From: Alphaproteobacteria bacterium UBA1002 | GTDB taxonomy: Bacteria; Pseudomonadota; Alphaproteobacteria; Rickettsiales; UBA998 | Reading direction: 5' to 3' | Assembly (NCBI GenBank): GCA_002291845.1 | Contig: DBAU01000110.1 | Location: 24,030 to 88,029 of the forward strand | Length of the DNA stretch: 64,000 nucleotides | Shown: in pieces, positions 10,256 through 64,000 of the stretch | How positions within the stretch are numbered: position 1 is the stretch's first letter | How the letters are laid out: every line of letters starts with the position of its first letter | Notes under the pieces: generated by a model | Told to the model about the DNA's origin: nothing | The model's database searches: none | What the model saw: only the letters and a program-made list of their open reading frames with translations | Program-made: the position numbers and the translations under genes

Positions 10256-10337
10256 TGCTGCAAGGGCGAAAAAATAAAGTCCGTATCCCTACCCTGACCG
10301 TTGCGGAAAGTCAAAACCACCGCACGCATAGCAGGCA

Positions 10338-40262: not shown

Positions 40263-41035
40263 CGCTTCGTATCACCCGTGGCCAGCGCCGCCAGATATTT
40301 CCAGTTTACTTGCGAAAACAGGCACGCGTGGATCAGCGAAATCCAGTCCAGTTTGCGCCAGTCGAGATAAATTTCATCCGGCAACTGACGGAACTTTTCT
40401 TCATCAATGGTCATAAATCCGCGCAGATTAACGCTGCTCCCATCCGGAAGTGCCAGCGTGGACACGCGCTCTACGAGTAATTCCTGCTCCTTCAACGCCT
40501 CCACAAAATCGCGTGTCAGACGGTAATGCTGCTGGTACGCACTGCAGAAATCCAGCGCCCGCTGTGCAACCTCTGCTGCCTTACCCTCGACATAGAAGGG
40601 ATGGGCAGGCTGTTGCGCGGCAAAATTCTCTGCTGCTTCATCAATACATAAAATCCACTGTTGACGATCCGGCGATTCCATCAACGCGAAAGGATATTTC
40701 CGCACATACGCGGGGATGTAGGCGTCGCTGCGCCACTGGCCAGCGATGGTGAGAAAATAATTCTCGCTTTCCAAACCAACCAGCGCAACCGGCATATTGT
40801 CTTCCCCGGCGGTAAACACGATCGGGTAACTGCGGGCAGCTTCTGCAAACTCAATGGCATTCAGCGGAATAGAGTTTGTCGGTCGCGCAAAAGAGAAATG
40901 GCTTAATACCCCTATCCCGGCTTCGGCATGCCGATCCAGTGTAATGGGTTGCGGTGATTTATAAAAAAGCGGCAACTGACTGACCGGGGAGGCCCCGGTG
41001 GTTGTTCCGTTGTGACGCTCTTTCGCCCCGACCAT
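40259..41035 (-). CDS. SapC family protein
   Basis: LPLFYKSPQPITLDRH near the N-terminus and an overall SapC-like layout. The ATG at 41035 is preferred over the TTG at 41074. The stop overlaps the convergent rodA stop. Confidence 0.7.
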   Translation of the reverse strand: MVGAKERHNGTTTGASPVSQLPLFYKSPQPITLDRHAEAGIGVLSHFSFARPTNSIPLNAIEFAEAARSYPIVFTAGEDNMPVALVGLESENYFLTIAGQWRSDAYIPAYVRKYPFALMESPDRQQWILCIDEAAENFAAQQPAHPFYVEGKAAEVAQRALDFCSAYQQHYRLTRDFVEALKEQELLVERVSTLALPDGSSVNLRGFMTIDEEKFRQLPDEIYLDWRKLDWISLIHACLFSQVNWKYLAALATGDTKR

Positions 41036-41064
41036 AGCCTCTACCCCGCTGGTGAATGGTGCAT

Positions 41065-44000: not shown

Positions 44001-44865
44001 CGCTGACACTGCCTTCCACCAGCACGAGACCGTTGGGCGTGGCGACCAAATCACCCGCATCAACAATCCCCTGCGTGTTAATAACCTGATTGACCACATT
44101 GCTTGCGGCTTGTGCTGTCAGATAAATTTGGCCACCGCGCGCTTGCACCTGACCCCCAACGCTCACCTGTGCGGCACTATTCTCATTGCTTACGGCAAAA
44201 TTCACCAGGCCGTCGCCCGTCAGATCAAGGGTCGCTTTCTCCGCCCCTGCCAGCAATACTTTGCCCTGGTTCGCGGAAATAATACCCTGATTGATCACCT
44301 GAGGCGCCACCAACGCCACCAACCCTTGCTCCTGCGCTGTGCTGACGATCTGGGCGCCGTTTTGAACTTCGATCCGCGCATTTTGCGCCCCCGCTGTGTT
44401 AAAACGCAGGCGATCATTGTTCATGAACTGATTGCTGTTAATGTTCGCCGTGGTTGCAATCAACCCCCCGACATCGATGCGTGCCTGTGGGCCAAACACC
44501 ATCCCATTGGGATTGCTGATGATCACGCGGCCATTGGCTTGAATCGCACCAAGAATCTGGGAAGGATTCGCATCCGCCACCACGCGGTTAAGCGTAATGG
44601 CACTGACGCTTGGCTGGTTAAAGCGCACGGTTTCGCCATTATTCACATTAAATTGATTCCAGTTGATGACGGCTTTAGCAGAGTCTTGTTGAATGGTGGT
44701 CACGCTGCCCACCGTGGAAATACCGGCCGTTCCATGGGTGACATCACCCCCGGTTGGAAGCGCATAGGCTATGGAAGGAAGAACCAACAACGCCGCGGTT
44801 AGCGCGCTTGAGCGAGTCAGGCGATATGCATGAAAACGGAAAGAATTCGCGGCTTGGCAGGTCAT
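41065..44865 (-). CDS. Two-partner-secretion exoprotein (TpsA, filamentous-haemagglutinin-like adhesin)
   Basis: Signal peptide, then a TPS domain (AKAVINWNQFNVNNGETVRFNQP and ISNPNGMVFG). A long G/A/N/T/V-rich beta-helix-like body follows, then a Pro-rich linker and a 165-aa tail. The ATG at 44865 behind AAGAGGA is preferred over the TTG at 44895. Confidence 0.85.
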   Translation of the reverse strand: MTCQAANSFRFHAYRLTRSSALTAALLVLPSIAYALPTGGDVTHGTAGISTVGSVTTIQQDSAKAVINWNQFNVNNGETVRFNQPSVSAITLNRVVADANPSQILGAIQANGRVIISNPNGMVFGPQARIDVGGLIATTANINSNQFMNNDRLRFNTAGAQNARIEVQNGAQIVSTAQEQGLVALVAPQVINQGIISANQGKVLLAGAEKATLDLTGDGLVNFAVSNENSAAQVSVGGQVQARGGQIYLTAQAASNVVNQVINTQGIVDAGDLVATPNGLVLVEGSVSASAEQVGGRVEVTGRDVVVRGSGALQSNGQTAGTVRVTADRHAIIGGGVGNTRLSANSSSKLKGTAGRVQVLAKGGDAALLSNASISADGYRAGRIDFSGADILLAGALSVDNFGGRLGSIVIDPAQIIINNGGFNGLVNNIAEQWIEAQSQAGSNVTLEATDLIRMDNLADNVLQGGAGNITLRTLGANGEIRFASKGDTIRTTSGDVTLSAGAGGINIGSIATGINGAYPALGAPNGDVAAGTIRLATTNGGNIDVRNLTVRGTRDDSSIIVDSSGAFTARALSVRIDDRPEPGSAGRATIDVLAEDDISITGNVVARSRDLQDANRIASAFISLISTTGDVTANSQVTANAQGGLLTPFSLGSSEAIISVSGTNVNLSAVQANARGGHDALSEVTLTATNQLITRDDVLSLAQKTVSGVGDSLGTITMTANSILVPITNLSTAIRATTDVLINGAVRVTAPEDAIVLTGTPTAIQSSRSLNINGGKSVTALGGIQAFLANLDVRAGSGGISLGSLTTGDALLVANDVLNQVNGAFEAGNITLTSTQNGSISTGAISSAGTFGTTRITLVSDEDVTTGPITLIGEDGPQAGSVDLMAISINADDQVLINGDILLRGEDRQDATRRGEVTLNVAAGGDLTVTGNVEVLARGGLRSSAPGDSGTTFAEAFFDAGNDLTLGNVLVESMGGTDASAYLFMGAPNGRVALGDTVSRAQSSTSTQEGDPVVGVANATLEIVALGTSSNSAANITYNGANPLAVANLASRQGRFTSTQNVAGNIASLLIVNDPGGPVPPVSPPETPSVTPPAAPSVPLVSDLLEEIELNRLSSFARNLYSFFGETAGDQYYFGNTEVNLSLLTPGRVTVPTGVDAAALANLSPAAGGANQNKALVRPRLTGGSDAKRARYAWASSSGTSSNGSGQPTEGITSPEGLAGLSPAAGGEVANNLNTLNPQGGVEGSCGNYYLDAGYGANFDASGCQ
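41182..41202 (-). other. LSPAAGG motif, copy 2 (candidate BTLCP/LapG-type cleavage site)
   Basis: ctg agc ccg gct gcc gga gga encodes LSPAAGG, residues 1232-1238 counted from the TTG start. Confidence 0.4.
41356..41376 (-). other. LSPAAGG motif, copy 1 (candidate BTLCP/LapG-type cleavage site)
   Basis: ctc agc ccg gcg gcg ggg ggg encodes LSPAAGG, residues 1174-1180. Its codons differ from copy 2. Confidence 0.4.
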
Positions 44866-45058
44866 GGAGTCCTCTTTGGAAGAAAGGGATGGCAAAAATG
44901 CCGTCCTTTAATAAACAAGGTGTCTGGGTACTATAAAAATGGATCAAATCCAAGTTTTATTTACCCAAAATTAACCATTTGTCCGAAGGAAAACGGAAAA
45001 AGCACGGGCTGCCTCACAGAAATCAAGAGACACCACACGAAAATAAAAGGCGCTAACT

Positions 45059-46768
45059 CTAGTAGATGTAGGTCAACGAGAAGAAGCCGCGAACATCATC
45101 GCCGTCAGTGCCTTCCGCGGAAACATCACGGGTGAGTGGTACCGCGATTTCCGCACTGCCCGCAATGTTCTCCGTGAGCGAGAAACGCAGACCCACGCCT
45201 GAAGAGGCAAGGGAGGCCTGACTATTTTCTCCCACCAGCGCATCACGGTTCCATACCTTACCCACATCATAAAAACCGTAGAGCTGGTAGATGTCCATGG
45301 ACCATTCCGGGAGGGCATCGCTGAAGCGCAATTCCACACGGCTGGCCAGACCGTGATCGCCCGTCAGCTCTGCGGGATCATAAGCGCTGCCAAAAGCGGG
45401 CCCGCCAAGAGCAAATTCTTCTGATGCAAACAATGGATCAAGCGCGTATTGACCGTTTAAACCGACATACAGAGAAAACGCCTGGCTCAATGGTTGCAGG
45501 CGGGTATACTGCCCGGTAAAGCGTGTGAATGTAGTGTCAGCATTGGAACGCGAGCGAAGATCTCCTGCGTCATTTGCCCCCGCCACGTCAAGGCCCTGCA
45601 CCGCCTCAAAATCTAACCGGTTGACCCCTTGCAGCCCATCAAGCACGTCATAGGCACCGCCGACATAGAGGCTACGGATATTGTCTTCAAACAGCTCAGT
45701 GTTCAGGACATCCGTGGTGGAATCACGATAGCGCAGGCCGAGATCGCCAAACAGATTTTCCTGCCGCGAGCGCAGGAAAGGATGACGAGCCGCCAGAACA
45801 AATGCCGCACTGTCACCCTCAATCTCTAATGCCTCGAGCGAGCCCCCCGGACGGGTTTCCGCATAGGAGAAGACCCCGCGCACGGTTGTCCCCTCAGAAC
45901 CCACAGGCTGCTGGTATGTGCTTTCAATAAAGCGCAGCTCATCAAAATTAGAGGCCGTTATGCCACGTACTTGAATGCGCTCAGAGAGTCCCAGCGCAGA
46001 GTTTGTCGCCACTAGACCCGTGGTCTGAAGGGGTCCAAGGAAACGGCTACCCCGGTTATCCACCGTGAGATTTGCATCAACTGGATTACGCTGCATACTA
46101 ACGGTCAAACGTGATGCACCCGGCGTATTCGGAGACGGGCTCAGCACACCACGCGCAGCCGCCCCAGTCAGATCATCAATGAGCAGCAGATAGCGCTCAA
46201 GCACTTGATTGCTCAGTGGACGTGCCTCGGTGATATGACGTGCATACGATTCCAGCAAAGCTTTATTCTGGCCCTCCGCGCCTTCAAAGGTGACTTCATC
46301 AATAAATCCTTCGACGATGCGAATGGTTACTGTACCATTCTCAATACGTTGCCCAGCGGGAAGGATCGCGCGGCTAAGAATATACCCCTGATTACGATAA
46401 TAGGCCGTTATCCGCTCAGCAATCGCGCGCAACCCTCCTAAGGTCACGGGCTTGCCGAGCTGTTCCGCATAGAGCGGAGCCAGCTGGTCATCCGAAATCG
46501 CTGTCGCACCTTCAATTACGACGCCGTTGAGCACAAAGCTTGCGCCCCCGTCATCAGTCGACAGTGCTCCCTCGCGCGGCTGAACCGGGACAACGCCTGT
46601 CGCGTCGAGCTCCGGGCGCTGATTTTCGCTCCGCAAACGTTGCTGTACCTGTCCGGGATCAACGGTCTGCGGTATCGAGGTCGGCGAAATAGATTGTGCA
46701 ACCACCGCCGCGGGCATGCACGTCGCCACAGAAAAAAATAATGCCGCGCGAAAAAAACCAGTACGCAT
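45059..46768 (-). CDS. TpsB outer-membrane transporter (ShlB/FhaC/HecB family)
   Basis: Signal peptide, POTRA region (FVLNGVVIEGATAISDDQL) and a beta-barrel ending in an aromatic residue (FFSLTYIY). Located upstream of tpsA. Confidence 0.9.
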   Translation of the reverse strand: MRTGFFRAALFFSVATCMPAAVVAQSISPTSIPQTVDPGQVQQRLRSENQRPELDATGVVPVQPREGALSTDDGGASFVLNGVVIEGATAISDDQLAPLYAEQLGKPVTLGGLRAIAERITAYYRNQGYILSRAILPAGQRIENGTVTIRIVEGFIDEVTFEGAEGQNKALLESYARHITEARPLSNQVLERYLLLIDDLTGAAARGVLSPSPNTPGASRLTVSMQRNPVDANLTVDNRGSRFLGPLQTTGLVATNSALGLSERIQVRGITASNFDELRFIESTYQQPVGSEGTTVRGVFSYAETRPGGSLEALEIEGDSAAFVLAARHPFLRSRQENLFGDLGLRYRDSTTDVLNTELFEDNIRSLYVGGAYDVLDGLQGVNRLDFEAVQGLDVAGANDAGDLRSRSNADTTFTRFTGQYTRLQPLSQAFSLYVGLNGQYALDPLFASEEFALGGPAFGSAYDPAELTGDHGLASRVELRFSDALPEWSMDIYQLYGFYDVGKVWNRDALVGENSQASLASSGVGLRFSLTENIAGSAEIAVPLTRDVSAEGTDGDDVRGFFSLTYIY

Positions 46769-52889: not shown

Positions 52890-52964
52890 TGGGGCGTAGC
52901 CAAGCGGTAAGGCAGCGGTTTTTGGTACCGCCATTCCCAGGTTCGAATCCTGGCGCCCCAGCCA
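52890..52964 (+). tRNA. tRNA-Gln (anticodon UUG)
   Basis: Acceptor TGGGGCG/CGCCCCA, anticodon arm GCGGT-TTTTGGT-ACCGC, T-loop GGTTCGAATCC and an encoded CCA. Confidence 0.9.
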
Positions 52965-53008
52965 CTTTTTCCTTCTCTAACTTCTTTCTAGACTGAGATA
53001 TCGAAAAA

Positions 53009-53300
53009 CTGGCCCTTTTGGCTGTTTCTCCGGGCTTCACCGCTACATACGAATCAGGGATTTTTGGGCAAATACTGAAAAATATGGCCTTTTCTCTGCG
53101 ATTGTCTCACTGGCGAAGTTTTCGAGGTGACGTTTCCTCGTTTTGGCCTTTTCCCTGATAAGGGCGAAAATACAGGGAATATGACAATTTAACTGGGAAT
53201 GGATGTTTTCGAGAGAACCTAAAGCCCAGGCGCATAGCCAGTTTCAAAGCCATTTCCCTAAAAATGATAACAGGGAATCATTTCAATACATCAGGGAAGC
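53009..53300. repeat. Array of short repeats next to the tRNA-Gln 3' end
   Basis: Core (C)AGGGAA occurs at 53055, 53173, 53193 (ctgggaat), 53271 and 53292 forward, and at 53151 and 53252 reverse. TGGCC(C)TTTT occurs at 53010, 53085 and 53144. The last two extend to 14-mers tggccttttctctg and tggccttttccctg. Confidence 0.5.
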
Positions 53301-53861
53301 AGAGCACCTGTTTCTGGGAAGGCCATTCCACCGGCAGATTGGCAATCAGATCTTGCAGATGCAATGTCGCCGGCTGGCTACCGGTGAGGATGCCGGAGAG
53401 AATCTCCGGTGTAAGAAACATTAGATTCACAATGCGCGAAACATAGGTGCGACTCATGCCAACCTGCTGCGCCAACTCGGTGATGGTCACCTCCCCCGTT
53501 TCTAACAGACGGTTCCACCGCCAGGATTTCACCAGGGCATTCACCAGTACTGGATTCTAGCGTGACCGCCGAACACTCTTCAGCGGCCTTGCCATTGCCC
53601 CGGGTTGTGTAGGTTGGCGTATAGACACCCCCAGAGGGAGCGTAGCACTTGCCAGCAAGTAAGGTCCCATGCTTGGCATGCGCCTTAGCGCGATGTTGCT
53701 GGCCTTCTTTCAATGCCGCCTGCACCTCCTGCCAGAGTTCCATCGGAATGATGGCCTGATGCTGGCCTTCGTAGGTTTTATCCTTATGGATGATGCGGCC
53801 GATATAGAGCGGGTTGTTGAGAATCTTATAGAGCGCCTGATAGCTGAAGGGCTGGCCGCCC
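53278..53861 (-). pseudogene. Large serine recombinase remnant (no catalytic N-terminal domain, frameshifted, internally deleted)
   Basis: Three frames carry recombinase-domain text. These are KGGQPFSYQALYKILNNPLYIGRIIHKDKTYEGQHQAIIPMELWQEVQA, then AKHGTLLAGKCYAPSGGVYTPTY, then MSRTYVSRIVNLMFLTPEILSGILTGSQPATL. An in-frame TAG lies at about 53862. Confidence 0.65.
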
Positions 53862-53869
53862 TTCTACAC

Positions 53870-54120
53870 CAGGAATTCACCAATGCGGCTGATGGCAATG
53901 TTATTGAATTAAAGAACAACTATCGCTCAACTCCAAGGATAATCAACGTAGCCAATGCTTGGTCACAGACCATTCAGCAACTTGGCTCTTTACCGAATCC
54001 TCATATGGCACACGGGAACACGGGACGTACTGATTATTCAGAGCGACATGTGTCGATTAGCAGATTTGCAGATACTGTTGCAGAAGCGGATAGAATTGCA
54101 GCTACAATTAATGCACTAGT
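53870..54120 (+). pseudogene. UvrD/Rep-family helicase internal fragment
   Basis: VIELKNNYRSTPRIINVANAW resembles the conserved UvrD-family xLxxNYRS motif region, with no upstream Walker motifs. It abuts the recombinase remnant on the opposite strand. Confidence 0.5.
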
Positions 54121-54286
54121 GAACGCTGCAGCCAAGCTGAGCGGCTACATCGCCGCTAATCTTCGTATCGGCCGCCACTTGCTGTGTAAGCTCATTAAGT
54201 TTTGCCGCGATTCCCTTACGCGCTTCTCCAAGCTGACCCAGAATTTGTGATTCTTTCTCAAGTGCTTCCTTGTCAAATGTCAGCAT
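54116..54286 (-). CDS. Possible small coiled-coil protein (56 aa)
   Basis: An ATG behind GGGGG-N5. Sequence MLTFDKEALEKESQILGQLGEARKGIAAKLNELTQQVAAD. No family recognised. Confidence 0.25.
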   Translation of the reverse strand: MLTFDKEALEKESQILGQLGEARKGIAAKLNELTQQVAADTKISGDVAAQLGCSVH

Positions 54287-54410
54287 ATGTGCCCCCAGAT
54301 TTTTTTGCCCCAAGACTATCTAACAGGATTGTTACGGCTTCATGTCGGTAAAATATGAATTTTTTATGACACGCTAGCGAGCATGGTGAAGTAGCCTGTA
54401 TAGTGATTTC

Positions 54411-55832
54411 ATGGATTTTACCTCGTTCAACCTAAAGCATTTGGAACGGCCCGATCCCTTATGGCTGCACAAGCTTGGGAATGCGCTGTTTTTTGACGCG
54501 GCTAAAGCCCGCGCGGCTTCGGAGCAGAAACCGTTGCACGAGGTCACAGATATTCTTGTACGTGAAACAGGCCATCATCTAAGGCCGAGCGTGCCGGGGA
54601 CCGGAGCCTTGAAGGGTACGCCGCTTGATTCCTTGATTGAAGCCGTCAATGCTGAAGCCAAAGCACTGGATGACGTGTTTCACTTGTTCCCTGACAGGGA
54701 GGCCCTGCGCGACAAGATCGCTGCCGAGATATTCGATGTCTATGAACGTACGGGTATCCTGCAACATCTCCATACGACCGGCGCTATTACCGCCGAAGAG
54801 CTTCGACACGGAGCTGCATTGCTGATCAAACAGCTGGATCAATACGGTGCCAATGGCTTGGGGCCAGCCTGGAAACACTGGCAGGAACGGGGCGTGGACT
54901 GGATTGCTCATCTGGAGAATGACACGCGCGAGTTTCATCCTACCCGCCTGAACGGTATCACACAATCAAGACCTCATGCCTTCAAGCGTGGTGATTATTT
55001 CAAGGCAGAATTAGAAGCGGCAGGGGAGCTTGATGCCGTCAAGTTCCGCGACATTCTTACAGGAACACTTGGGCCTGCCTTTGAAAAAGCGCATGCAGCC
55101 CGTGAATCATTGATCGGCACTCACTTGACGTCAGGGGTTAATCAGGCAGGGCATGACTTTTTCGCTGGAATCGCTGCGCTCCACCCCAATTATGAGCGCG
55201 CCCGCAAAGGCACTGAAAAACTGCATTCGCAGGAACTTCACTATCTCAATGACCAGTTGCACCCTACGGAGGAACAACTAGCCCGAATTCGTCAGGGCAA
55301 GACTCCACAAAGTTTTCACGAAGCTCTTTCAAGTATCTCCGCTGAAAAAGTAGCCGAACATCCAGCAATCACAAGTGAACTTCGCGAGTCGCTGGCCGCA
55401 GGTGTAAGATCAACCGCTGCGGAACCCGCATCAGGGGCGCGCTCACCGGCACCGGGAGGAGCAAAAGCATCTCCCTTATTGGGTCACGAAGCACCTCCTG
55501 TGCCTGCTGGAATAACGCCGCATCCAGAAGGTGCTTCGTCTTCACTGGAAAAAGCTGCCGAAACCCTGTCCCGAAAATCCGGAATGGTTAAAGTGGGAAC
55601 CGTCATTTTAGGTGGCATTCTCTGTGCTGATCAGTTGCGCCGTGCTTTTAAAGACCACCCCGATGAATCCGGACAGGAGAATCAGTCCGAATCAGTGAAC
55701 AAAATTTTGCATTATGTCGTCGCAGCTGCCGCGGCATCGGGTGTTGCCTTGGTGGTACTGGCCAAGCCTGAAACCATTGGCCGTTTTGCTGATCGCGTCA
55801 CAGGCTTGTTCAGGAAAAGCCCCCAGATTTAA
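54411..55832 (+). CDS. Hypothetical protein, helical with two C-terminal hydrophobic segments
   Basis: 473-aa ORF with an Ala/Pro/Ser-rich linker, then VKVGTVILGGILCA and ILHYVVAAAAASGVALVVLA. No family recognised. Confidence 0.55.
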   Translation: MDFTSFNLKHLERPDPLWLHKLGNALFFDAAKARAASEQKPLHEVTDILVRETGHHLRPSVPGTGALKGTPLDSLIEAVNAEAKALDDVFHLFPDREALRDKIAAEIFDVYERTGILQHLHTTGAITAEELRHGAALLIKQLDQYGANGLGPAWKHWQERGVDWIAHLENDTREFHPTRLNGITQSRPHAFKRGDYFKAELEAAGELDAVKFRDILTGTLGPAFEKAHAARESLIGTHLTSGVNQAGHDFFAGIAALHPNYERARKGTEKLHSQELHYLNDQLHPTEEQLARIRQGKTPQSFHEALSSISAEKVAEHPAITSELRESLAAGVRSTAAEPASGARSPAPGGAKASPLLGHEAPPVPAGITPHPEGASSSLEKAAETLSRKSGMVKVGTVILGGILCADQLRRAFKDHPDESGQENQSESVNKILHYVVAAAAASGVALVVLAKPETIGRFADRVTGLFRKSPQI

Positions 55833-56137
55833 TTTCCAACTTCTTAAGCTTATTTTAGCAAAGATTTGACTGTAAAAAGCTAAGCCTACTTTCGGCAAAA
55901 GGCGCATCACAAAGCAAATACCAAGAGACATTTCTCACAACGTCTTCCGCCCAGCCAACCTTTGCACGAAAAGTCTCCCATCTGATCCAGAATGGCGACA
56001 AACGAACGAAGGTACCAGATAAATACCTTTTATTGTGCGCGTAAGGATGAAATGGTGCGTTGAGTGTTTCGCTCTGTTTTGGCCATGGGCACTCCCTAAA
56101 AAAATAGATGCAACACAAAAAGCACTAAAGGTTATGT

Positions 56138-56998
56138 ATGAGTGAACAGCACGTACATCATCCGCGAATCTGGCGTGAGGTCATGCAGGCGGTCATCCGC
56201 CTCCTCGTCCTGGGTGGTGGGCTTATCTACTTTATGGGACGCGCGGAAGCAGGGCTGAATCATTTTCACAACCAGCCTTTCGTAAATATTGCACTCCAGA
56301 TTGCACTTGCCCTGGCCGCCATCGGTATCTACGCCGCTTATGGAAGGCTTATTGAACGCCGCCATGTCTCCGAACTCTCAGCTGGGGGTAGCGGGCGCGA
56401 ATGGAGCCTTGGCGTGCTGACAGGCATGGGGATCTACACGGCCTGCGTCGTTGTTCTCATCCTGATGGGTTACTACAAGGTGGAGGGCCTCAACCCCATC
56501 GCGTTCGTTCTGCCTGCCATGGCTCTGGCCATCAAATCAGGGGTGTTTGAGGAGCTCATTTTTCGAGGCGTCTTGCATCAGTCCGTCGAGAACGTGTTGG
56601 GTAGCTTGGCAGGTACCCTCGCGGCGTCCTTTGTTTTTGGCTTCCTTCACCTGCTGAATCCTGCTGCTACGATCATCGGGGCAATCTACATCAGTATTGA
56701 GGCCGGACTTTTATTGTCTGCTGCCTATATGGTTACGCGTCGTATCTGGAGTTGTATTGGCTTCCACATGGGGTGGAACTTTGTGCAGGAGGGAATCTAT
56801 TCAGGGGTTGTCTCCGGTGGACCTGACGAGCCTGGCTTTTTAAAGGCGACAATTGAAGGACCCGTTCTGTTTACCGGTGGCTCATTCGGGATGGAACAGT
56901 CCGTCTTTGCTTTACTATTTTGTACCACAACCGGTCTGATCTTGCTGCGCACCGCCATACGACGGGGGCACTTCATTGCACCGTTATGGAAGCGCTGA
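56138..56998 (+). CDS. CPBP-family intramembrane glutamic endopeptidase (CAAX protease/Abi-like)
   Basis: Motifs FEELIFRGVL, FGFLHL and HMGWNF in a polytopic membrane protein. Confidence 0.8.
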   Translation: MSEQHVHHPRIWREVMQAVIRLLVLGGGLIYFMGRAEAGLNHFHNQPFVNIALQIALALAAIGIYAAYGRLIERRHVSELSAGGSGREWSLGVLTGMGIYTACVVVLILMGYYKVEGLNPIAFVLPAMALAIKSGVFEELIFRGVLHQSVENVLGSLAGTLAASFVFGFLHLLNPAATIIGAIYISIEAGLLLSAAYMVTRRIWSCIGFHMGWNFVQEGIYSGVVSGGPDEPGFLKATIEGPVLFTGGSFGMEQSVFALLFCTTTGLILLRTAIRRGHFIAPLWKR

Positions 56999-57053
56999 AC
57001 CCGGCAGCCTTGCGTGATCACCCGAATACGAACAGGGCTTCAGAGCCATAACG

Positions 57054-57212
57054 TTACTCGTCTTTAAGCCTGTGAAAGATGCTCGAGCAAACCTGCATGG
57101 CCACCATGCACCGGCGCCATGTCTTCCCAAGACGGGCAGATAAGAGGATTAATGTCAGCAGATAAAAGCCAATCTGCGCAAGGCCGTTGCCCGTGAAGCC
57201 GAGGGATTCCAT
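57054..57212 (-). CDS. Possible small membrane protein (52 aa)
   Basis: An ATG 6 nt after AGGAG, which overlaps the stop of the barrel gene. One hydrophobic span LAQIGFYLLTLILLSA. Below the ORF-track cutoff. Confidence 0.2.
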   Translation of the reverse strand: MESLGFTGNGLAQIGFYLLTLILLSARLGKTWRRCMVAMQVCSSIFHRLKDE

Positions 57213-57221
57213 ATGTCTCTC

Positions 57222-58082
57222 CTAAAAACGGTAGGCCGTACCGAAAAACAGATTCGTATCATCCGCCGCATCCGTCGCGCCGAGATGCAGGTTCGCGTCG
57301 ATACGGAAGTTATCGGTCACCGCATAAACGAGACCAAAATCCACCGTATTCGCCCAGCGCGCACCGGGCTGGTCCGCCTTCACCGTCCAATACTCCGCGT
57401 AAGCACTGAGTTTATCGTTCAAGCTTTTACCCACGATCAACGAGTTGACATACATCGAATCATATCCGGAGCCATCCGGCTGGGCGATCAGGTTGAACTG
57501 GGTCTGACCACCAATGCTCCACCCGTCAGAAAGCACAAAGTTAAATGGCAGGCCGATACCATACTCATATTCATCATTGGCTAGATTATCCTGATTCGTC
57601 GGTAGCTTCACATACGGTAGCACGCCGAGAGAGAATGCATCCGTTGGCAAATTACCGATCAGATTTTTTTTCAGCCGGACCACCGTATCACCAAAACCCT
57701 GCCGTGTTTCTTCCATCCCGCCGGTGCGGTCATCTATATCCAGATGCCGATAGAGGTCACTGGCAATCTGCAGATCCGTGGTATCGGTCAACCCGATCCG
57801 CACGTTCGTAAAGCGTCCCAACGTGCTTTGGCGGGTACGCGTGCATTGACCATCGACGCAATCATCATTTTCCACATACGCGTACAAGTCCGTTTCCACC
57901 TGCACCCGGCCAGCATCAATGGAATAGGGGCTATCGGTTTTGCTGGGACGCTCCGTGGTCATCGGGCGCCGCTGATCGTCCGGCGTAGGATTGAATAGCG
58001 TATGCCCCTCTCCTGCCAAAGCGGACGATGCGGTTAATAAAGCGAAGGTCGTCGTCATAGCCATTACAAACATGCGCGGCAT
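57222..58082 (-). CDS. Outer-membrane beta-barrel protein (MetA-pathway/phenol-degradation-like transporter family)
   Basis: Signal peptide ending SSALAGEG, alternating beta-strand pattern and C-terminal FFGTAYRF. Confidence 0.65.
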   Translation of the reverse strand: MPRMFVMAMTTTFALLTASSALAGEGHTLFNPTPDDQRRPMTTERPSKTDSPYSIDAGRVQVETDLYAYVENDDCVDGQCTRTRQSTLGRFTNVRIGLTDTTDLQIASDLYRHLDIDDRTGGMEETRQGFGDTVVRLKKNLIGNLPTDAFSLGVLPYVKLPTNQDNLANDEYEYGIGLPFNFVLSDGWSIGGQTQFNLIAQPDGSGYDSMYVNSLIVGKSLNDKLSAYAEYWTVKADQPGARWANTVDFGLVYAVTDNFRIDANLHLGATDAADDTNLFFGTAYRF

Positions 58083-58112
58083 AAAGAAATCTCCATCCAG
58101 CCAAGGAAAAAG

Positions 58113-58283
58113 CTATGGCCTCAGCAGCGCAATAAAATGATACGCACCAAGGCCAAGCGTCAGAATACGTGAAATGAGGGCAAAGAGCGTCATGGCTTCT
58201 CCTCCAGCCGCACAAGTCGGCTCACCAGCCAGCCGCTTGCTGCAAAGAAAGCTAACCCACCTAAAAAAACATAACCATGTCAT
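58113..58283 (-). CDS. Possible small two-TM membrane protein (56 aa)
   Basis: GGAGG-N5-ATG. Sequence MTWLCFFRWVSFLCSKRLAGEPTCAAGGEAMTLFALISRILTLGLGAYHFIALLRP. An internal ATG behind GGAGGAG would give a 26-aa peptide instead. Confidence 0.3.
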   Translation of the reverse strand: MTWLCFFRWVSFLCSKRLAGEPTCAAGGEAMTLFALISRILTLGLGAYHFIALLRP

Positions 58284-58407
58284 AAGGACCTCCACGGACT
58301 TCGTTTTACGCTGGTTAATAGAGTGCCGTGTATATTTAAGGTGTCTGGCTGTATGGAAAGCGTATAGAGACAAAAGGCGGGCGGTGTGGGACCCGAAAAA
58401 TACAGTG

Positions 58408-58764
58408 CTACATTTCCATTTTCCCACGGTGGAACTCCTGCACGTGCTCCCTTTGTGGTTCAAACGTGGAACGCAAAACATTCAATGCTTTGTGGGGATC
58501 ACAGGCGCCACAGACAAAGACGTCCAGCGCAACATAATTGATCTCAGGCCATGTATGGATACTGATATGCGATTCCGCCAGAATCGCTACACCGGTTATA
58601 CCTGCATTATCACCAAAAGAATGCAGGATAACATCAAGCACCGTGGCACCACACGCATTGGCCGCATCACGCATGGCGTGCTCAATCTGTGGCGCATCCT
58701 GAAGATGCCTCACATCCCAGAAATCAATCAGAAGATGCCGTCCAGGAGAAACAAATTTGGTCAC
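58408..58764 (-). CDS. Pyruvoyl-dependent S-adenosylmethionine decarboxylase proenzyme (SpeH/class 1b-like)
   Basis: Self-cleavage motif AESHISIHTWPE and DVFVCG. The GTG start forms a GTGA overlap with the upstream gene's stop. The 217-aa track ORF is an artefactual N-terminal extension. Confidence 0.8.
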   Translation of the reverse strand: MTKFVSPGRHLLIDFWDVRHLQDAPQIEHAMRDAANACGATVLDVILHSFGDNAGITGVAILAESHISIHTWPEINYVALDVFVCGACDPHKALNVLRSTFEPQREHVQEFHRGKMEM

Positions 58765-59873
58765 GTGGTGGGGCCTTCCTGATGAAATAGGTAGCGTTTC
58801 CAGGGCGTATTCTCCGTATTCATCCGCCAGATAAACGCGTCGAGGATGTAGTGTGTCATTTGCGGCAGTGCGAGTAGCGGGACCAGCCATACAAGGATAT
58901 GCGTGTCTGTCATTACGGGCAGCGTAGAAAAGACACCAAATAGACTGGCATGCTCTCGCCATATCAGCCCATCCCAAAGCCCCTCTTCGAGAAACGCGAG
59001 GATGCAAAGTATCGCGATGTACCAAGGGACCGCCCTCCCGCGGAATAATAAACCAATCCATTTCCAGAGATAGGAGGACTGGGAGCCTTGGATCAGGGTC
59101 TGATTGTGACCATACAACCAGATTAACGCGAGATAAGGGATCCCGTGCGCGATGACATTCGTTGCAGTAAACGCAAGATCATTGTTAAACATGACAATCC
59201 CGACAAACCATGAGCATGCGGTGCCAAAAAGAAGTATATTTTTTGGTAAATTCCACCCGCCTGTGTGTTTCCACTGTATGATCTCTTTTACTACATACGC
59301 CGCCAGCGTCGCGGCATACAGACTGGCCACTGCGTCGTGAAGCCAAGGCGCATTGAGCAAGAAAAAATCCTCCTCGATAAACCACTCGAACGTTCGCCCG
59401 TGACAATGCCAATAAATCAAGGGGTATAGCGTAGCCAAATAGATAACGGCTTTATCAAGCCAGCGAAAAAATATAGGAAGTCTCCGCTCATTACGCGCAT
59501 AGATCATCATGAAACCATATTGCTGGCGAATAAAATGAAAGACCGCGAGATAGGCAAGGACGCGCCAAAACAACAGGCTATTGATACTATACAGGAAACA
59601 CCCTGCCATCCAGGCAAGCAGCGGCGTTAATACATAAAGCCCCTGACGCTTTTTTAGTTCTTCTCTGTCCAGATAGGTTCGAAAAAGCGTGCTGTAGACA
59701 TGGCTGACATCAACTCCCACAATCAGTAACAACCACAGCCAAGGTGGAACGTCATTCAGCGGCCCCATCAGCTGACGGCAAAAAACCACAAGCGCAGTGA
59801 TAATTATGGCTGGGGACAGAATCAGCCAACCATCAAACCGTGCGGAGTGTATCCAAGGCTGAGCATGACTCAT
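58761..59873 (-). CDS. Polytopic membrane protein of unknown function
   Basis: 370-aa ORF with about 10 hydrophobic spans and recurring His-containing motifs (DVSHVYS, FHFIRQQYG, IAHGIPY, MTHYILDAFIWR). Overlaps both neighbours by 4 nt. Confidence 0.6.
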   Translation of the reverse strand: MSHAQPWIHSARFDGWLILSPAIIITALVVFCRQLMGPLNDVPPWLWLLLIVGVDVSHVYSTLFRTYLDREELKKRQGLYVLTPLLAWMAGCFLYSINSLLFWRVLAYLAVFHFIRQQYGFMMIYARNERRLPIFFRWLDKAVIYLATLYPLIYWHCHGRTFEWFIEEDFFLLNAPWLHDAVASLYAATLAAYVVKEIIQWKHTGGWNLPKNILLFGTACSWFVGIVMFNNDLAFTATNVIAHGIPYLALIWLYGHNQTLIQGSQSSYLWKWIGLLFRGRAVPWYIAILCILAFLEEGLWDGLIWREHASLFGVFSTLPVMTDTHILVWLVPLLALPQMTHYILDAFIWRMNTENTPWKRYLFHQEGPTT

Positions 59874-61510
59874 AGAACACTCCGGTAGGCCAATCCAAGA
59901 TAGGAGAGAACCCCCTCTGCAGCGCGTACACCATGGGTGTAGGCCTCTTCAAAAATGGAAATGCCGCTCATATCGGTATGGGCCGTAAAAAGGGGAGGAT
60001 GCTGTTTCAATGCGCTCTGACGCACGTCACCCCATATGAAGCCGGGGGTGGGACGAACCATCGCATGCCCCCATACCCACACATCCAGACGCTCAACAGC
60101 CCCCTCAAGCTCTGGGTGAATATGAAGCAGCTCTTTAAGAATAATGCGCTGCCACTCTTCATAGCGTCTGTTGAGTGCCTCACGACGAGCTTCTGCCGGG
60201 CTTAGCTGAGTAAGTGGCCAGTAATAAGTCACCACCGTACTGCGCGGAGTTAGCTGTGGCACTTGATGCGTGGCCACAACGTAGCCAAGCAGTGGACTGT
60301 CATAAACCACATTGTCCCAGCTGAGTGGTGCGCCTTGGCCTGCGGGCATTTTTGACAGGGTAATATTTACCACAGCCCATGGTGAATAAGAATATGCCTC
60401 ATTCTGCGATGAAAAAGAGCGGGTGGTTGAGTTCACCATGCGTGAAGTGACAAAATGCGGCGTCGCAAGAATGGCGGCACGCGCCGTAACACAGGTGGAG
60501 GTCTGTGTGTTCTGATCCCAGTATTCTACAGTCACATGGTTATCCTGTTCGGTCACGCGATAGGCTAGCGCGCTGGTAAGAATATTGTCCTTGCATGGCT
60601 CCGCCAGCTTGTTTGCCAACCAACCATTACCTTCCGGCCAGGTAATGACATTGGAAGAATCCGTGTTTGCGGCCACGCCATTCCGTGAAGCAAAGTAATG
60701 CAAGCCAGCCCAAGCAGAGGTTTCGGTAAAACGTGTTCCGAAATCATCGCGACAGCTATAATCCACATACCAGCGCAAATGAGGCGAGTGATAGCCGTGC
60801 TGATCCATCCATTCTGACATGGTGAGCGCGTCAAGTGCGATCCATTCTTGATCCTGCGAACTTTGGTCGAGGGGAATGGCAAACAAACGTTTACCATCAC
60901 GGCCCCTGCGATTTTTCAGGTGATCAACGAAGTCAAAAAACCGAGTATACTGCGCTTCCTCGTCGGGCGTGACGCCAATTCTCGGCACCAGTCCGTCTTG
61001 CCAGCGCCCATACATGTAGAGGCGCTCGTGCGGATCCGCACAAATGTAATACTCATTGTATCGTGGGCGGCCCGCCGCATCATACCCGGTAATGACTCCT
61101 ATTTCTTCGAAGAGCCTCTTAACGGCTACTGACTCTTCGGTGAGCAATGGCACGTAATGTGCACCCCAAGGATAGGCAGAAACATCATTTTTACCGCTGC
61201 TGGCGTTACCGCCAGTTTGCTTTTCTAGATCGAGCAATACAAAATTTTTCTGTCCTGATTGATGCAAACGATAGGCGGCAGCAAGCCCCGAAATGCCGCC
61301 ACCAATAATGACCACGTCTTTCTCAAAGACGTTTGTAGGTGCAGGGAAATTACCATTCCGAAGCGTATGCCCCATGGCTGAATCCGCACCGAGTATGGCA
61401 CCTGGAATCTTCTTTTTTTTCGAAACTGGAAGTAAGCACTTACCTAATGCCAGCGCCCCCAGACTGGCCACACTTCCTGCAACAAATGTTCTTCGGGTGA
61501 TCTTCATCAC
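59870..61510 (-). CDS. Tat-exported FAD-dependent oxidoreductase (amine-oxidase-like)
   Basis: Twin-arginine leader MMKITRRTFVAGSVASLGALALG and dinucleotide fold DVVIIGGGISGLAAAYRL. Confidence 0.8.
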   Translation of the reverse strand: MMKITRRTFVAGSVASLGALALGKCLLPVSKKKKIPGAILGADSAMGHTLRNGNFPAPTNVFEKDVVIIGGGISGLAAAYRLHQSGQKNFVLLDLEKQTGGNASSGKNDVSAYPWGAHYVPLLTEESVAVKRLFEEIGVITGYDAAGRPRYNEYYICADPHERLYMYGRWQDGLVPRIGVTPDEEAQYTRFFDFVDHLKNRRGRDGKRLFAIPLDQSSQDQEWIALDALTMSEWMDQHGYHSPHLRWYVDYSCRDDFGTRFTETSAWAGLHYFASRNGVAANTDSSNVITWPEGNGWLANKLAEPCKDNILTSALAYRVTEQDNHVTVEYWDQNTQTSTCVTARAAILATPHFVTSRMVNSTTRSFSSQNEAYSYSPWAVVNITLSKMPAGQGAPLSWDNVVYDSPLLGYVVATHQVPQLTPRSTVVTYYWPLTQLSPAEARREALNRRYEEWQRIILKELLHIHPELEGAVERLDVWVWGHAMVRPTPGFIWGDVRQSALKQHPPLFTAHTDMSGISIFEEAYTHGVRAAEGVLSYLGLAYRSVL

Positions 61511-61528
61511 GTGCTGATATGTTTAGGC

Positions 61529-63040
61529 CTAATAAATCAGGTATTGTGACCATTCTTCATCAAAATAATGGATTAATACCTGATCATCGAGGCGTTGGAT
61601 TTTTGTTTTTATTCGCGCCATGTCTGCTGGGAAATGCAGCATCTCACGTAAGGTTTCCACACTCACAAAACGAAGGCCTTGAGGATATTTCGCCGGCGGC
61701 ACATACGGTCCATGTGAAGCAATTACAAAACCCCACTCGCCGAATGCTGGCACATAGGCATGGTAAGGAGTCGTCGCAAATCCCGCCGCTTCCAGCGTGT
61801 TATTAACGCACCAAAATGATTTCCGCGCCACAAGTGGCGATGTGCTTTGCACAACTATGAGGCCGCTTTCACTCATCACGTCATGCAGCAGCTTGAAAAA
61901 TGTAAGGGAATACAGTTTCCCAACAGAGAAATTGGATGGATCTGGCACATCGATAATAATGGCATCAAATCGCATAGTGCTATTGTTCTTATGTTCTCTC
62001 AGCCATAGAAAAGCATCCTCATTGACGACGTTTACCTTGGACGACAGAAGTGACTTCTGATTGAGCGAAACCAGCATCTCATTGGCCGAAAATAGCCTCG
62101 TCATCGCAGGATCAAGATCCACTAAGGTGACTGATTGAACGCTTTCATATTTCAATACTTCTCGTAGTGCCAGGCCATCCCCACCGCCAATAATTAAAAC
62201 ATGCGCAGGGCGTGGCAGAGCGCTCATCACAGGATGCACCAGAGATTCGTGATAGCGATATTCATCTACGGAGCTGAATTGCAGATTGGAATTTAGATAC
62301 AAGCGCAGATCCTGCGCCTGTTTGGTGAGTACAATGCGTTGGTAAGGAGAGGATTGAGCAAAAATAATTTTGCCCGGATACGCATTGGTTTCAGAAATGC
62401 TGGTAATCTTTTCAGAGAAGACAAATCCAAGCATCAGTGCGATAAGCACAAAAACGGCAGAGAATTTATGAAACTTTTGTGCCGGGATTTCTTCCTTGAT
62501 CGCATAGAGCACCCATAGCGCGACCATGGTGTTGAAGATACCAAACAAGAAGCTGGTTTTTACCAAACCAAGATAGGGAACCAGTAGCAGCGGAAATAAG
62601 ATGGAGGCAAACAACGCACCGACGTAATCGAAGGTAAATATCTTGGAAACGAGATCTTTGAATTCCAAACGATCTTTTAGAATCCTCATAAGGATCGGTA
62701 TTTCCACTCCCACAAGAATGCCAATGACGCTGACCACGCCATAGAGGAGTAGCCGGAAAGAATACACATGCTCAAAAAGAACAAACAGTAACGCCGCCGA
62801 ACAGCCACCAATCAGCCCCACCAGAATTTCCACTTTGATGAAAAAACCAAGCAGATTACGTGTCACAAAGCGGGAAAGCCAAGAGCCGATGCCCATGGCA
62901 AACAAGTAGCAGCCAATAATGGTTGAGAACTGGGTAATGGAATCTCCCAGAAGATAGCTGGCAAGCGTACCAGCTATTAGCTCATAGACGAGCCCGCAAG
63001 TGGCAATAACAAAGACTGAAATGAAAAGTAGGTTTGCCAA
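61529..63040 (-). CDS. Membrane-fused polyamine aminopropyltransferase (SpeE-like)
   Basis: About seven N-terminal TM spans, then a spermidine-synthase fold (HVLIIGGGDGLALREVL, VTLVDLDP, DAIIIDVPDPS). Confidence 0.85.
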   Translation of the reverse strand: MANLLFISVFVIATCGLVYELIAGTLASYLLGDSITQFSTIIGCYLFAMGIGSWLSRFVTRNLLGFFIKVEILVGLIGGCSAALLFVLFEHVYSFRLLLYGVVSVIGILVGVEIPILMRILKDRLEFKDLVSKIFTFDYVGALFASILFPLLLVPYLGLVKTSFLFGIFNTMVALWVLYAIKEEIPAQKFHKFSAVFVLIALMLGFVFSEKITSISETNAYPGKIIFAQSSPYQRIVLTKQAQDLRLYLNSNLQFSSVDEYRYHESLVHPVMSALPRPAHVLIIGGGDGLALREVLKYESVQSVTLVDLDPAMTRLFSANEMLVSLNQKSLLSSKVNVVNEDAFLWLREHKNNSTMRFDAIIIDVPDPSNFSVGKLYSLTFFKLLHDVMSESGLIVVQSTSPLVARKSFWCVNNTLEAAGFATTPYHAYVPAFGEWGFVIASHGPYVPPAKYPQGLRFVSVETLREMLHFPADMARIKTKIQRLDDQVLIHYFDEEWSQYLIY

Positions 63041-63058
63041 AACAAGAGGGTCTTTCCG

Positions 63059-63286
63059 TTAGCCATGAATCGCGGACGCGATAATGGTTGCGATGCCAAA
63101 CGCGAGTGCCCCTAAAAAGATGGCAAAGGCCGTATTCTGCTTTTCAACCAACTCCTTCCAAATACTAATTTTTGGGGTGAGCACATCGAACAATGTAAAA
63201 CTCAGCGCAAAAATCAACATGCCAATGCCGGAGTAAACCACAGCTGAAACAACATATTTTATCTGAATTACTTCAAGCAGTTCCAT
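63059..63286 (-). CDS. DUF350-like small membrane protein (YjfL-like)
   Basis: 75 aa with two to three TM spans (VVYSGIGMLIFALSFTLF and AFAIFLGALAFGIATIIASAIHG). A Shine-Dalgarno AAGGAG is present. Confidence 0.65.
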   Translation of the reverse strand: MELLEVIQIKYVVSAVVYSGIGMLIFALSFTLFDVLTPKISIWKELVEKQNTAFAIFLGALAFGIATIIASAIHG

Positions 63287-63297
63287 ACATTTCTCCT

Positions 63298-63435
63298 TTA
63301 TTTATGGTAGCGGTTTGCGGTCTTTTCGGGTTTCTGGTCGCCCGTCAGAAAATCTCCCATGACATAGCCCCGATAATTAGCAAGTGTCATAAGAGTAATC
63401 AGTAGCGCGCAGTAAGCAGTAAATATTTTCGGCAT
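63298..63435 (-). CDS. Possible small membrane protein (45 aa)
   Basis: Sequence MPKIFTAYCALLITLMTLANYRGYVMGDFLTGDQKPEKTANRYHK. Its ATG lies 2 nt after the upstream stop, and its own stop abuts the DUF350 Shine-Dalgarno sequence. Below the ORF-track cutoff. Confidence 0.25.
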   Translation of the reverse strand: MPKIFTAYCALLITLMTLANYRGYVMGDFLTGDQKPEKTANRYHK

Positions 63436-63437
63436 AA

Positions 63438-64000
63438 TTAATCATCATCAAAATTATTATTACCCTCGTCACCGTGTGCGTCATTGGAATGCGCAAAGTC
63501 GCTATCGGACCAGCGCTTAGTTTCAAAAAACAACATGCGGATGGAAGCAAAAAACGGATAAACAATCAGCAACCAAAAAGTGAGCAGGATGTTGGACACA
63601 GAAGAAACATCTCGCGTTACGCTGATTGAGAAGGTGACGGGAGCCCCATTTTGGAAAGCCCCCCACTCAGCATCGATCAGCAGTCGATAAGAGCCAGGGG
63701 GGACCCGGGAGAGAGTGGTCGTGTCGAATTGGGCGCCTTCATGCCAGCTTTCACCCCCCGCATATCCCGAATAATACTCAATGGCATGCTGAAAATTATA
63801 TGCTTCATGGGTTTGCTCATTCACCAGTGATAAGCCGAGCTCTACCCAGTCATTCTGCACCGGTGAAGCGCTTTGGATAAGCACATTGCCTGCCTCAGGC
63901 AACTGAAAGGCAGCGGAGCTAAATGTTTGCCCTTTTTGGTAGGGCTGAATATACCCTTGAGTGGAGTAAACATGTGCATTTTCTGCCATAAAAGCCATTA
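63438..64000 (-). CDS. Hypothetical protein with C-terminal TM anchor (possibly DUF4178-related); 5' end may lie outside the window
   Basis: The ORF reaches the window edge. A beta-rich domain (PGSYRLLIDAEWGAF) is followed by the TM segment ILLTFWLLIVYPFFASI and an acidic tail. The family assignment was not verified. Confidence 0.45.
   Translation of the reverse strand, partial: MAFMAENAHVYSTQGYIQPYQKGQTFSSAAFQLPEAGNVLIQSASPVQNDWVELGLSLVNEQTHEAYNFQHAIEYYSGYAGGESWHEGAQFDTTTLSRVPPGSYRLLIDAEWGAFQNGAPVTFSISVTRDVSSVSNILLTFWLLIVYPFFASIRMLFFETKRWSDSDFAHSNDAHGDEGNNNFDDD

Follow-up and report, generated by a model that had tools for sequence, protein, structure and literature searches.

Why do thousands of bacteria that make no spermidine keep a dedicated S-adenosylmethionine decarboxylase (AdoMetDC) together with an aminopropyltransferase fused to a membrane domain? 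This question, which dates from 2019, is raised by one end of a 64,000-nucleotide stretch of Alphaproteobacteria bacterium UBA1002 (contig DBAU01000110.1, positions 24,030 to 88,029; hereafter the window), where the minus strand carries genes for both proteins beside those for a predicted exported flavin amine oxidase, a 370-aa His-rich membrane protein (p370), a DUF350 protein, a DUF4178 protein and a 45-aa micro-protein. The same gene set accompanies the PspA and SPFH membrane-stress machinery, including Rv2597-Rv2601 of Mycobacterium tuberculosis, on whose function our literature search found no paper. In the reading we favour, the locus couples transport to the aminopropylation of some acceptor that is not putrescine, the exported flavoprotein and p370 oxidise or remove the product, and SPFH and DUF4178 proteins form a scaffold; on the predictions set out below, we put its probability at roughly 0.55.

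An earlier note on the same DNA had listed ten minus-strand open reading frames (ORFs) in this region and treated them as a single envelope polyamine operon. All ten were present at their listed coordinates in our ORF check of the window. Seven of them, from the AdoMetDC gene to the window edge (58408-64000), are co-oriented and conserved; the other three, orf56, an outer-membrane barrel gene and orf52, recur in none of the 87 related loci described below. Within the seven-gene core the intergenic distances range from -4 to 18 nt. The 4-nt overlaps on both sides of the p370 gene and the GTGA start/stop overlap at the AdoMetDC gene are as previously described, and the remaining gaps measure 2-18 nt. 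Profile searches also agree with the earlier domain calls (DUF350, a SpeE-like domain with about 7 transmembrane (TM) helices, an oxidase dependent on flavin adenine dinucleotide (FAD) with a twin-arginine translocation (Tat) signal, AdoMetDC and the barrel), while the 45-, 56- and 52-aa ORFs gave no profile match. Overall, the observations of that note were largely correct and its interpretation partly so.

The part of the unit beyond the window is visible on a metagenome contig, L001, that is 100% identical to window positions 52958-64000. There the unit continues for ~3.3 kb past the window edge to the start of a Band-7 gene, or ~3.5 kb if a further 65-aa ORF is included. The gene order on L001 is the 65-aa ORF with a helix-turn-helix (HTH)-like segment, Band-7/SHOCT, a 235-aa and then a 457-aa zinc-ribbon DUF4178 protein, the 45-aa micro-protein, DUF350, the 7TM::aminopropyltransferase fusion, the Tat flavin amine oxidase, p370 and class 1b AdoMetDC. 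We predict from this arrangement that the seven genes in the window form the distal two-thirds of a co-transcribed operon of ~8 kb. An RNA family search of L001 returned no riboswitch or other RNA family.

The gene neighbourhood as such is not new, since the locus is one copy of a described and widespread operon type, in its Band-7/SHOCT variant. The accessible text of Ravi et al. 2024 (mSystems, PMC11237479, section 19) presents operons built on 7TM::spermine-synthase, DUF350/YjfL and DUF4178, describes a variant that has Band-7/SHOCT and adds AdoMetDC and polyamine oxidase, and refers to Li et al. 2019 on both the link to AdoMetDC and the "aminopropylation of other substrates". The earlier statement that no pathway is assigned to these genes is therefore right for the biochemistry, but not for the neighbourhood. 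All the components named for this variant occur at our locus, namely DUF4178, DUF350/YjfL, 7TM::Spermine_synth, AdoMetDC, amine oxidase and a Band-7 protein whose C-terminal part has a hydrophobic segment and a SHOCT domain and which stands in place of the absent CesT/Tir-PspA dyad; a profile search of the L001 genes gave no match to PspA or CesT. Unlike our description, the accessible text of Ravi et al. contains no mention of p370, of a second DUF4178 gene or of the invariant His-Lys end of the micro-protein, and leaves the orientation of the transferase domain unstated. Our literature search found no later work characterising DUF4178/DUF350 systems.

The recurrence of the unit was followed in a sample gathered with p370 as query (80 loci from species-representative genomes and several metagenome loci). 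Relatives of every window gene were located by tblastn in 83 loci, the window's own locus excluded, and four closer relatives, with p370 68% identical, bring the related loci to 87. Among the 83, the oxidase gene was found directly upstream of p370 in at least 67, the transferase fusion in at least 65, the long DUF4178 gene (upstream of the transferase gene) in at least 63, DUF350 in at least 59, the short DUF4178 gene in at least 50, AdoMetDC in at least 46 and Band-7/SHOCT in at least 37; these numbers are lower bounds because several loci are cut by contig ends. The order of the DUF4178, DUF350 and fusion genes is kept in most of the 83 loci. The full gene order recurs in at least seven phyla and is not unique to the window, its hosts being Alpha-, Beta- and Gammaproteobacteria, Myxococcota, Melainabacteria, Bacteroidota, Leptospiraceae and candidate division FCPU426. 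The nearest relatives come from Gammaproteobacteria and Methylococcales metagenome-assembled genomes. The envelope cluster recognised earlier, namely AdoMetDC, the membrane-fused aminopropyltransferase, the exported flavin amine oxidase and the His-rich membrane protein, is confirmed as a conserved, co-oriented group. The Bacteroidota loci have no Band-7 gene, and their AdoMetDC gene sits at the 5' end. Local departures include ~2.7 kb of extra DNA separating the transferase and oxidase genes in L018, ~1.2 kb more DNA separating the DUF350 and transferase genes in L006, and an oxidase ORF apparently lengthened to ~748 aa in L028.

Downstream, conservation of the unit stops with the AdoMetDC gene. 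No relative of orf56, the barrel or orf52 lies within 10 kb of p370 in the 83 loci, and in the four close relatives AdoMetDC is followed by unrelated genes, which places the end of the conserved unit at 58408. The 124-nt gap from the AdoMetDC stop to orf56 holds a weak terminator-like hairpin (5-bp stem, 8-nt loop) from a consensus scan only, in which 3 such sites were found against 1.6 expected, and it marks a possible end of the transcription unit. The barrel, which the earlier note had built into the operon as an outer-membrane channel, was rejected as its export channel for want of conservation (0/87 loci), and we regard it as a mere neighbour.

Both enzymes of aminopropyl transfer appear intact. 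The AdoMetDC exceeds the TIGR03330 cut-off (127.8 bits against 75.65), matches PF02675 at E 7e-37 and aligns with Thermotoga maritima SpeD (1TLU, E 5e-23) at the ES processing site, the His and the Cys, so that ESHISIHTWPE...FVCG of the window protein pairs with ESHLTIHTWPE...FTCG of the T. maritima enzyme. Its catalytic residues are intact, and we predict it to be active. The possibility that it is a neofunctionalised Arg/Orn decarboxylase was set aside as improbable on sequence grounds, since the protein scores above the threshold of the AdoMetDC equivalog and has retained its catalytic residues. In the fusion protein, a Spermine_synth domain (PF01564, E 8e-38) lies C-terminal to 7 hydrophobic helices of ~210 residues. 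Of 63 orthologs, 62 keep its motifs GGGDG (G285-G289), D308/D310, D364-x-P-D367-P and Y263-H264-E265 without change. The fusion passes the NCBIfam models PRK03612 for the membrane-type enzyme (660 bits, cut-off 472) and MFS_SpdSyn (48 bits, cut-off 40) and fails both canonical SpeE equivalogs, TIGR00417 (125.8 vs 249.55) and PRK00811 (150.2 vs 260). Its closest relatives of solved structure, aminopropyltransferases that serve long-chain polyamines, thermospermine or agmatine, use longer or unusual acceptors.

These data bear on the simplest explanation, the one offered in the earlier note, by which an ordinary spermidine-type polyamine would be made, exported through a dedicated outer-membrane channel and turned over at the surface, as for PA4773-PA4775 (the PmrAB-controlled speD2/speE2 cluster) of Pseudomonas aeruginosa. 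The intact motifs of AdoMetDC and aminopropyltransferase and the transporter-like character of the fused membrane domain speak for this explanation, and PA4773-PA4775 are indeed required for surface spermidine in P. aeruginosa (PMC3572637). It is opposed by the two failed SpeE cut-offs and by the absence of the barrel from 87 of 87 related loci. In the 2019 work of Li and colleagues, the AdoMetDCs are reportedly active in hosts without spermidine, and the membrane fusion is said to fail to complement an speE mutant. PMC12803844, citing Li 2019, states that bacterial fusions of a membrane domain and an aminopropyltransferase were shown experimentally to be uninvolved in spermidine/spermine synthesis. 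We consider the explanation distinctly unlikely, and the product is probably not ordinary spermidine. The analogy with speD2/speE2 also becomes doubtful: both clusters are small, serve or seem placed at the envelope and pair AdoMetDC-like with SpeE-like genes, but the P. aeruginosa cluster makes a free polyamine, whereas the window fusion belongs to the membrane-fused PRK03612 family and is partnered by SPFH, DUF4178, DUF350, oxidase and p370. The locus also matches the MFS-SpdSyn/AdoMetDC system of Li, Kurihara, Kim, Liang and Michael 2019 (Biochem J 476:2579) in its membrane::SpdSyn-like fusion, class 1b AdoMetDC and DUF350 neighbour, and its modelled membrane domain may have a fold like that of the major facilitator superfamily (MFS).

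The membrane domain suggests where the transfer takes place. Its AlphaFold model (pLDDT 88) has 7 helices, not 6 or 12. In a Foldseek search with the 215-aa domain, MFS transporters (PepTSt, VGLUT2, YbgH, MdfA and VMAT1 among those listed) made up most of the 50 listed matches, with TMq 0.5-0.6 and probability up to 1.0, and the five best-ranked by E-value were ZIP metal transporters with TMq 0.22-0.25. According to this comparison the 6-helix core of the modelled domain looks MFS-like. The domain also contains invariant acidic residues (E20, D33, E71, E113 and D138). Across 63 orthologs, Lys plus Arg residues average 2.0, 3.3 and 2.8 in loops 2, 4 and 6, against 0.00, 0.03 and 0.00 in loops 1, 3 and 5. 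Both ends of an MFS half are cytoplasmic; since such a half begins and ends inside, the seventh helix would bring the catalytic domain outside. By charge bias and modelled fold, the transferase domain thus most likely lies on the periplasmic face, and its membrane domain, itself strongly conserved, suggests itself as the candidate conduit for decarboxylated AdoMet (dcAdoMet).

The oxidase is predicted to act on the same side. Its PF01593 match (E 1.3e-14, 54.8 bits against a cut-off of 19.8) covers the profile in full length, residues 73-535 corresponding to profile positions 1-443, and is accompanied by a NAD_binding_8 match (2e-12) and the dinucleotide-binding motif VVIIGGGISG. The protein begins MKITRRTFVAGSVASLGALALG, and its N-terminus has the Tat-type TRRTFV followed by a hydrophobic stretch, ITRRTFVAGSVASLGALALG. 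This was compared with the twin-arginine consensus S/T-R-R-x-F-L-K plus hydrophobic region, which it fits. Among 67 orthologs, 39 have RR within the first 30 residues, and RK or SRxxFLK variants are seen among others; an RR/RK motif with a hydrophobic region is found in most, and in Bacteroidota a Cys often comes next. Solved amine oxidases are only distantly similar to the window protein.

Directly downstream lies p370, an uncatalogued family for which we found no description in the accessible literature. The earlier note had flagged this 370-aa protein and the one at the window edge for profile searches: the edge protein proved to be the C-terminus of a DUF4178 protein, but p370 matches no family. 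Pfam and NCBIfam gave no match even at E<=10 across 71 members (noise only), and neither did a profile search of PDB sequences. A family of 1108 cluster representatives at 50% identity was assembled, and an AlphaFold (AF2) model from 71 diverse homologs reached pLDDT 95 with an all-helical fold of ten long helices. Foldseek against the PDB returned no solved relative among the 50 matches listed (best E 0.44, TM-score <=0.23, probability <=0.15), a negative that carries weight because the same tool gave a probability near 1 for the transferase membrane domain. An hhalign comparison of the N- and C-terminal halves (probability 1%) detected no internal repeat. Invariant residues are H58, Y108, H113, F114, Q117, G120, H156, H243, Q338, H341, D345 and W349, and D55, D232, N239, E296 and E297 are nearly so; the five invariant His fall on five different helices. 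Charge bias in 77 orthologs predicts both termini inside, which would arrange D55, H58, H113, Q117, Q338, H341 and D345 in an inner layer and H156, D232, N239, H243, E296 and E297 in an outer layer. Two apparent Rosetta-stone fusions, P0183 (1278 aa, p370 with M1 aminopeptidase) and P0238 (990 aa, p370 with LptD), were discarded as probably merged neighbouring genes.

With start codons picked automatically, p370 and the oxidase gene share a 4-nt start/stop overlap in 29 of 70 loci, and in 56 of 70 the gap between them is at most 13 nt. This coupling, the adjacency in 67 of 83 loci, the five His on five helices in inner and outer layers, and the fact that Tat flavoproteins with membrane redox partners are known would all suit a respiratory role, in which the flavoprotein and a cytochrome-b-like p370 form a periplasmic amine dehydrogenase feeding the quinone pool, while the other genes supply or regulate its substrate. 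We regard this as very unlikely. The many invariant Asp, Glu, Gln and Asn residues of p370 are atypical of a simple haem scaffold, the sequence and Foldseek searches of the PDB revealed no similarity to any solved cytochrome b, and AdoMetDC has no place in a catabolic module. In Armatimonadota, moreover, p370 occurs without the flavoprotein and with another partner: in all 8 loci the gene immediately upstream is a GyrI-like small-molecule-binding one, which overlaps p370 by 1 nt in L071 and is itself preceded in 4 of 8 by a glutathionylspermidine-synthetase-like ATP-grasp gene. The operon and the Armatimonadota loci are thus two independent settings in which p370 is linked with the chemistry of amines or polyamine conjugates, and a transporter, a metal enzyme and a redox partner are the candidate roles.

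The smallest gene of the core offers a candidate acceptor. Between the long DUF4178 gene and DUF350, an ORF of 42-71 aa ending in His-Lys-stop is present in 65 of the 67 loci with usable sequence; the chance of such an ending in a random ORF is ~0.001. H44 and K45 are the only invariant columns of the cross-phylum alignment, position -3 being mostly Tyr. The 45-aa ORF of the window is therefore a real gene with an invariant C-terminal His-Lys, although gene callers often miss it: it is called in L002, L003, L087 and L088 and missed in L001. It probably belongs to the same family as the "LipoSIG+Ctha_1186+Low-comp" slot upstream of DUF350 in Shewanella of Ravi et al. Since the N-terminal flank has a net charge of +1.9 and the twelve residues past the helix -0.1, the tail is predicted to be periplasmic. 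The transferase orientation, the Tat signal of the oxidase and this outward tail together suggest chemistry on the periplasmic face, while the zinc ribbons, the SPFH protein and AdoMetDC, which lacks a signal peptide, would remain inside. One may go further and propose that the micro-protein is itself the substrate, its terminal Lys being aminopropylated, perhaps repeatedly, by the periplasmic transferase with dcAdoMet fed through the fusion's own half-MFS, and the mark being erased by the flavoprotein with p370. Ribosomes would then supply the peptide part of a peptidyl-polyamine that stays anchored in the membrane. It would amount to a protein-polyamine mark, reversible and displayed on the inner membrane's outer face, and dcAdoMet would for the first time be seen to serve outside the cytoplasm. 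We hold this specific proposal to be unlikely.

The upstream end of the operon encodes the DUF4178 and Band-7/SHOCT proteins and the 65-aa ORF. The 457-aa protein combines, in order, a zinc ribbon (CxxC...CxxC at 34-57), DUF4178 (E 2.5e-19), a TM segment, a beta-rich domain of ~130 aa, a second TM segment and an acidic tail. The window contains it from the end of the first TM segment onward, the zinc ribbon and DUF4178 lying beyond the edge, and its two hydrophobic peaks (residues 257 and 408) suggest that the beta-rich domain is probably extracytoplasmic. The Band-7/SHOCT protein has a Gly/Ala-rich hydrophobic stretch at 255-280. The 65-aa ORF, whose HTH-like segment reads VDSSTVRRWLAG, is kept at 77-78% identity in L085, L087 and L088, has no counterpart in the distant loci and may be a local regulator. 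Such partners, the SPFH/SHOCT and zinc-ribbon proteins as well as the HTH-like ORF of the close relatives, would fit a sensor or regulator, close to the view of Ravi et al., in which the fusion and its partners monitor the levels of polyamine or dcAdoMet, or else envelope charge, and report to the SPFH scaffold, with catalysis secondary or vestigial. However, the catalytic residues of transferase and AdoMetDC are invariant over wide phylogenetic distances, and real chemical flux is what one would expect where an oxidase and an enzyme dedicated to making the donor are present; a mainly sensory function is, in our judgement, rather unlikely.

In the aminopropylation reading, which we prefer, the cytoplasmic AdoMetDC would, as its family membership implies, produce dcAdoMet, and the half-MFS::transferase fusion would use it to aminopropylate a non-putrescine acceptor at the inner membrane, its membrane domain acting as a conduit for donor or acceptor and its transferase domain being most likely periplasmic. 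The Tat-exported flavoprotein and the presumably translationally coupled p370 might then oxidise or remove the product. The Band-7/SHOCT and zinc-ribbon DUF4178 proteins, after Ravi et al., could organise the assembly from the cytoplasmic side. Candidate acceptors are the Lys with which the micro-protein invariably ends and an amine of a lipid head group. Of all this, the gene content, its conservation, the intact catalytic residues and the signal motifs can be read from the sequences, whereas topology, coupling and roles are deduced.

Several observations weigh against this scheme. Its topology depends on the positive-inside rule and needs helix 7 (188-207), with only ~17 hydrophobic residues, to be a true membrane span, and all Foldseek E-values listed for the membrane domain exceed 0.01. 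We know of no precedent for the export of dcAdoMet, which a periplasmic transferase requires. The polyamine-oxidase label is an assumption, because the protein is only distantly related to other members of PF01593, and enzymes for lipids and pigments belong to this family as well. Many Melainabacteria loci have no AdoMetDC within 10 kb, and the eight Armatimonadota loci carry p370 without oxidase or transferase.

The locus nevertheless provides new handles on the 2019 question: a peptide with an invariant C-terminal His-Lys that may be the acceptor, a transferase predicted to be periplasmic, and a 10-helix His-rich p370 tied to the oxidase. We did not find the micro-protein His-Lys, the p370 family or the periplasmic placement of the transferase in the papers accessible to us. 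If any of these handles holds, the envelope would be modified in a way not described before and dcAdoMet would gain a further role; if none does, the locus is one more copy of a described operon without known function.

Two further systems invite comparison. MprF, the lysyl-phosphatidylglycerol synthase/flippase, has a cytoplasmic synthase domain that uses Lys-tRNA. It likewise joins a polytopic domain to a transferase of cationic groups and is linked to envelope stress, but the analogy is functional only: there is no homology, the donor here would be dcAdoMet and the transferase domain is predicted to be periplasmic. The yjfIJKLMC-type operons of E. coli, as given in the accessible text of PMC11237479, encode PspA-like YjfJ, DUF350 YjfL and glutathionylspermidine-synthetase-like YjfC, and they too set DUF350 and a polyamine-conjugate enzyme beside a membrane-stress scaffold; that enzyme, however, is an ATP-grasp ligase rather than a dcAdoMet-dependent transferase, and AdoMetDC, oxidase and p370 are absent.

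Table 1. Features of the locus and its surroundings. Positions are those of the window unless contig L001 or other loci are named.
Feature	Position	Strand	Basis or remark
Conserved core, AdoMetDC to window edge, 7 ORFs	58408-64000	minus	conserved unit
C-terminal 186 aa of the 457-aa DUF4178 protein	63438-64000	minus	full gene at L001 3476-4849
Micro-protein, 45 aa	63298-63435	minus	conserved ORF; one N-terminal TM helix, variable tail ending NRYHK
DUF350 (YjfL-family) two-TM protein, 75 aa	63059-63286	minus	PF03994, E 1.8e-12
Fusion: 7-TM MFS-half-like domain (residues 1-210) and aminopropyltransferase domain (~225-500)	61529-63040	minus	profiles, model
FAD-dependent amine-oxidase-superfamily protein, predicted exported	59870-61510	minus	PF01593, Tat-type signal
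p370, predicted 10-helix inner-membrane protein, 370 aa	58761-59873	minus	model, charge bias
Class 1b (Bacillus/Thermotoga-type) AdoMetDC proenzyme, 118 aa	58408-58764	minus	TIGR03330; no signal peptide
Weak terminator-like hairpin	58378-58395	minus	13 nt after AdoMetDC stop
orf56	58113-58283	minus	outside conserved unit
Phenol_MetA_deg outer-membrane barrel	57222-58082	minus	PF13557, 9e-23; signal peptide, C-terminal ...YRF
orf52	57054-57212	minus	outside conserved unit
Rce1-like CPBP intramembrane protease	56138-56998	plus
473-aa protein	54411-55832	plus	no Pfam match
UvrD_C C-terminal fragment	~53669-54250		adjoins tRNA-Gln
tRNA-Gln	52890-52964	plus
Two-partner secretion region	40259-46768	minus
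ShlB/FhaC-type transporter	45059-46768	minus
TPS-domain exoprotein, 1276 aa	41065-44895	minus
SapC-family gene	40259-41074	minus
Band-7/SHOCT protein	L001 1767-2762, outside window		Band_7_1 8e-72, SHOCT 1e-7
65-aa ORF	L001 1545-1742 (~66545-66742)		directly upstream of Band-7 gene
Armatimonadota p370 context	~8300-11100 each in L046, L048, L052, L057, L068, L070, L071, L075

The composition of the region had been taken earlier as a hint of horizontal acquisition. The G+C content of the core is indeed lower than that of window positions 1-40 kb (0.486 vs 0.565), and its G+C at third codon positions is 0.48-0.56, against 0.616 +/- 0.062 for 30 other long ORFs. The identity of window and L001 ends at 52958, within the last 7 nt of the tRNA-Gln, and the sequences are unrelated beyond; past the tRNA-Gln, the G+C content drops from ~0.55 to 0.49-0.52. 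The tRNA-Gln site might mark the boundary of an island or a hot spot for insertions, and composition and context fit a variable region next to a tRNA, which supports the hint. No integrase was found, no repeat of the tRNA-Gln 3' end marking another island edge in the available sequence, and no copy of p370 in a search for plasmid copies.

The low-G+C stretch between tRNA-Gln and the operon also holds the genes of the 473-aa protein and the Rce1-like protease, which run convergently beside the barrel gene. Elsewhere in the window, a SapC-family gene accompanies a two-partner secretion pair of exoprotein and ShlB/FhaC-type transporter, and this pair confirms that the host is diderm.

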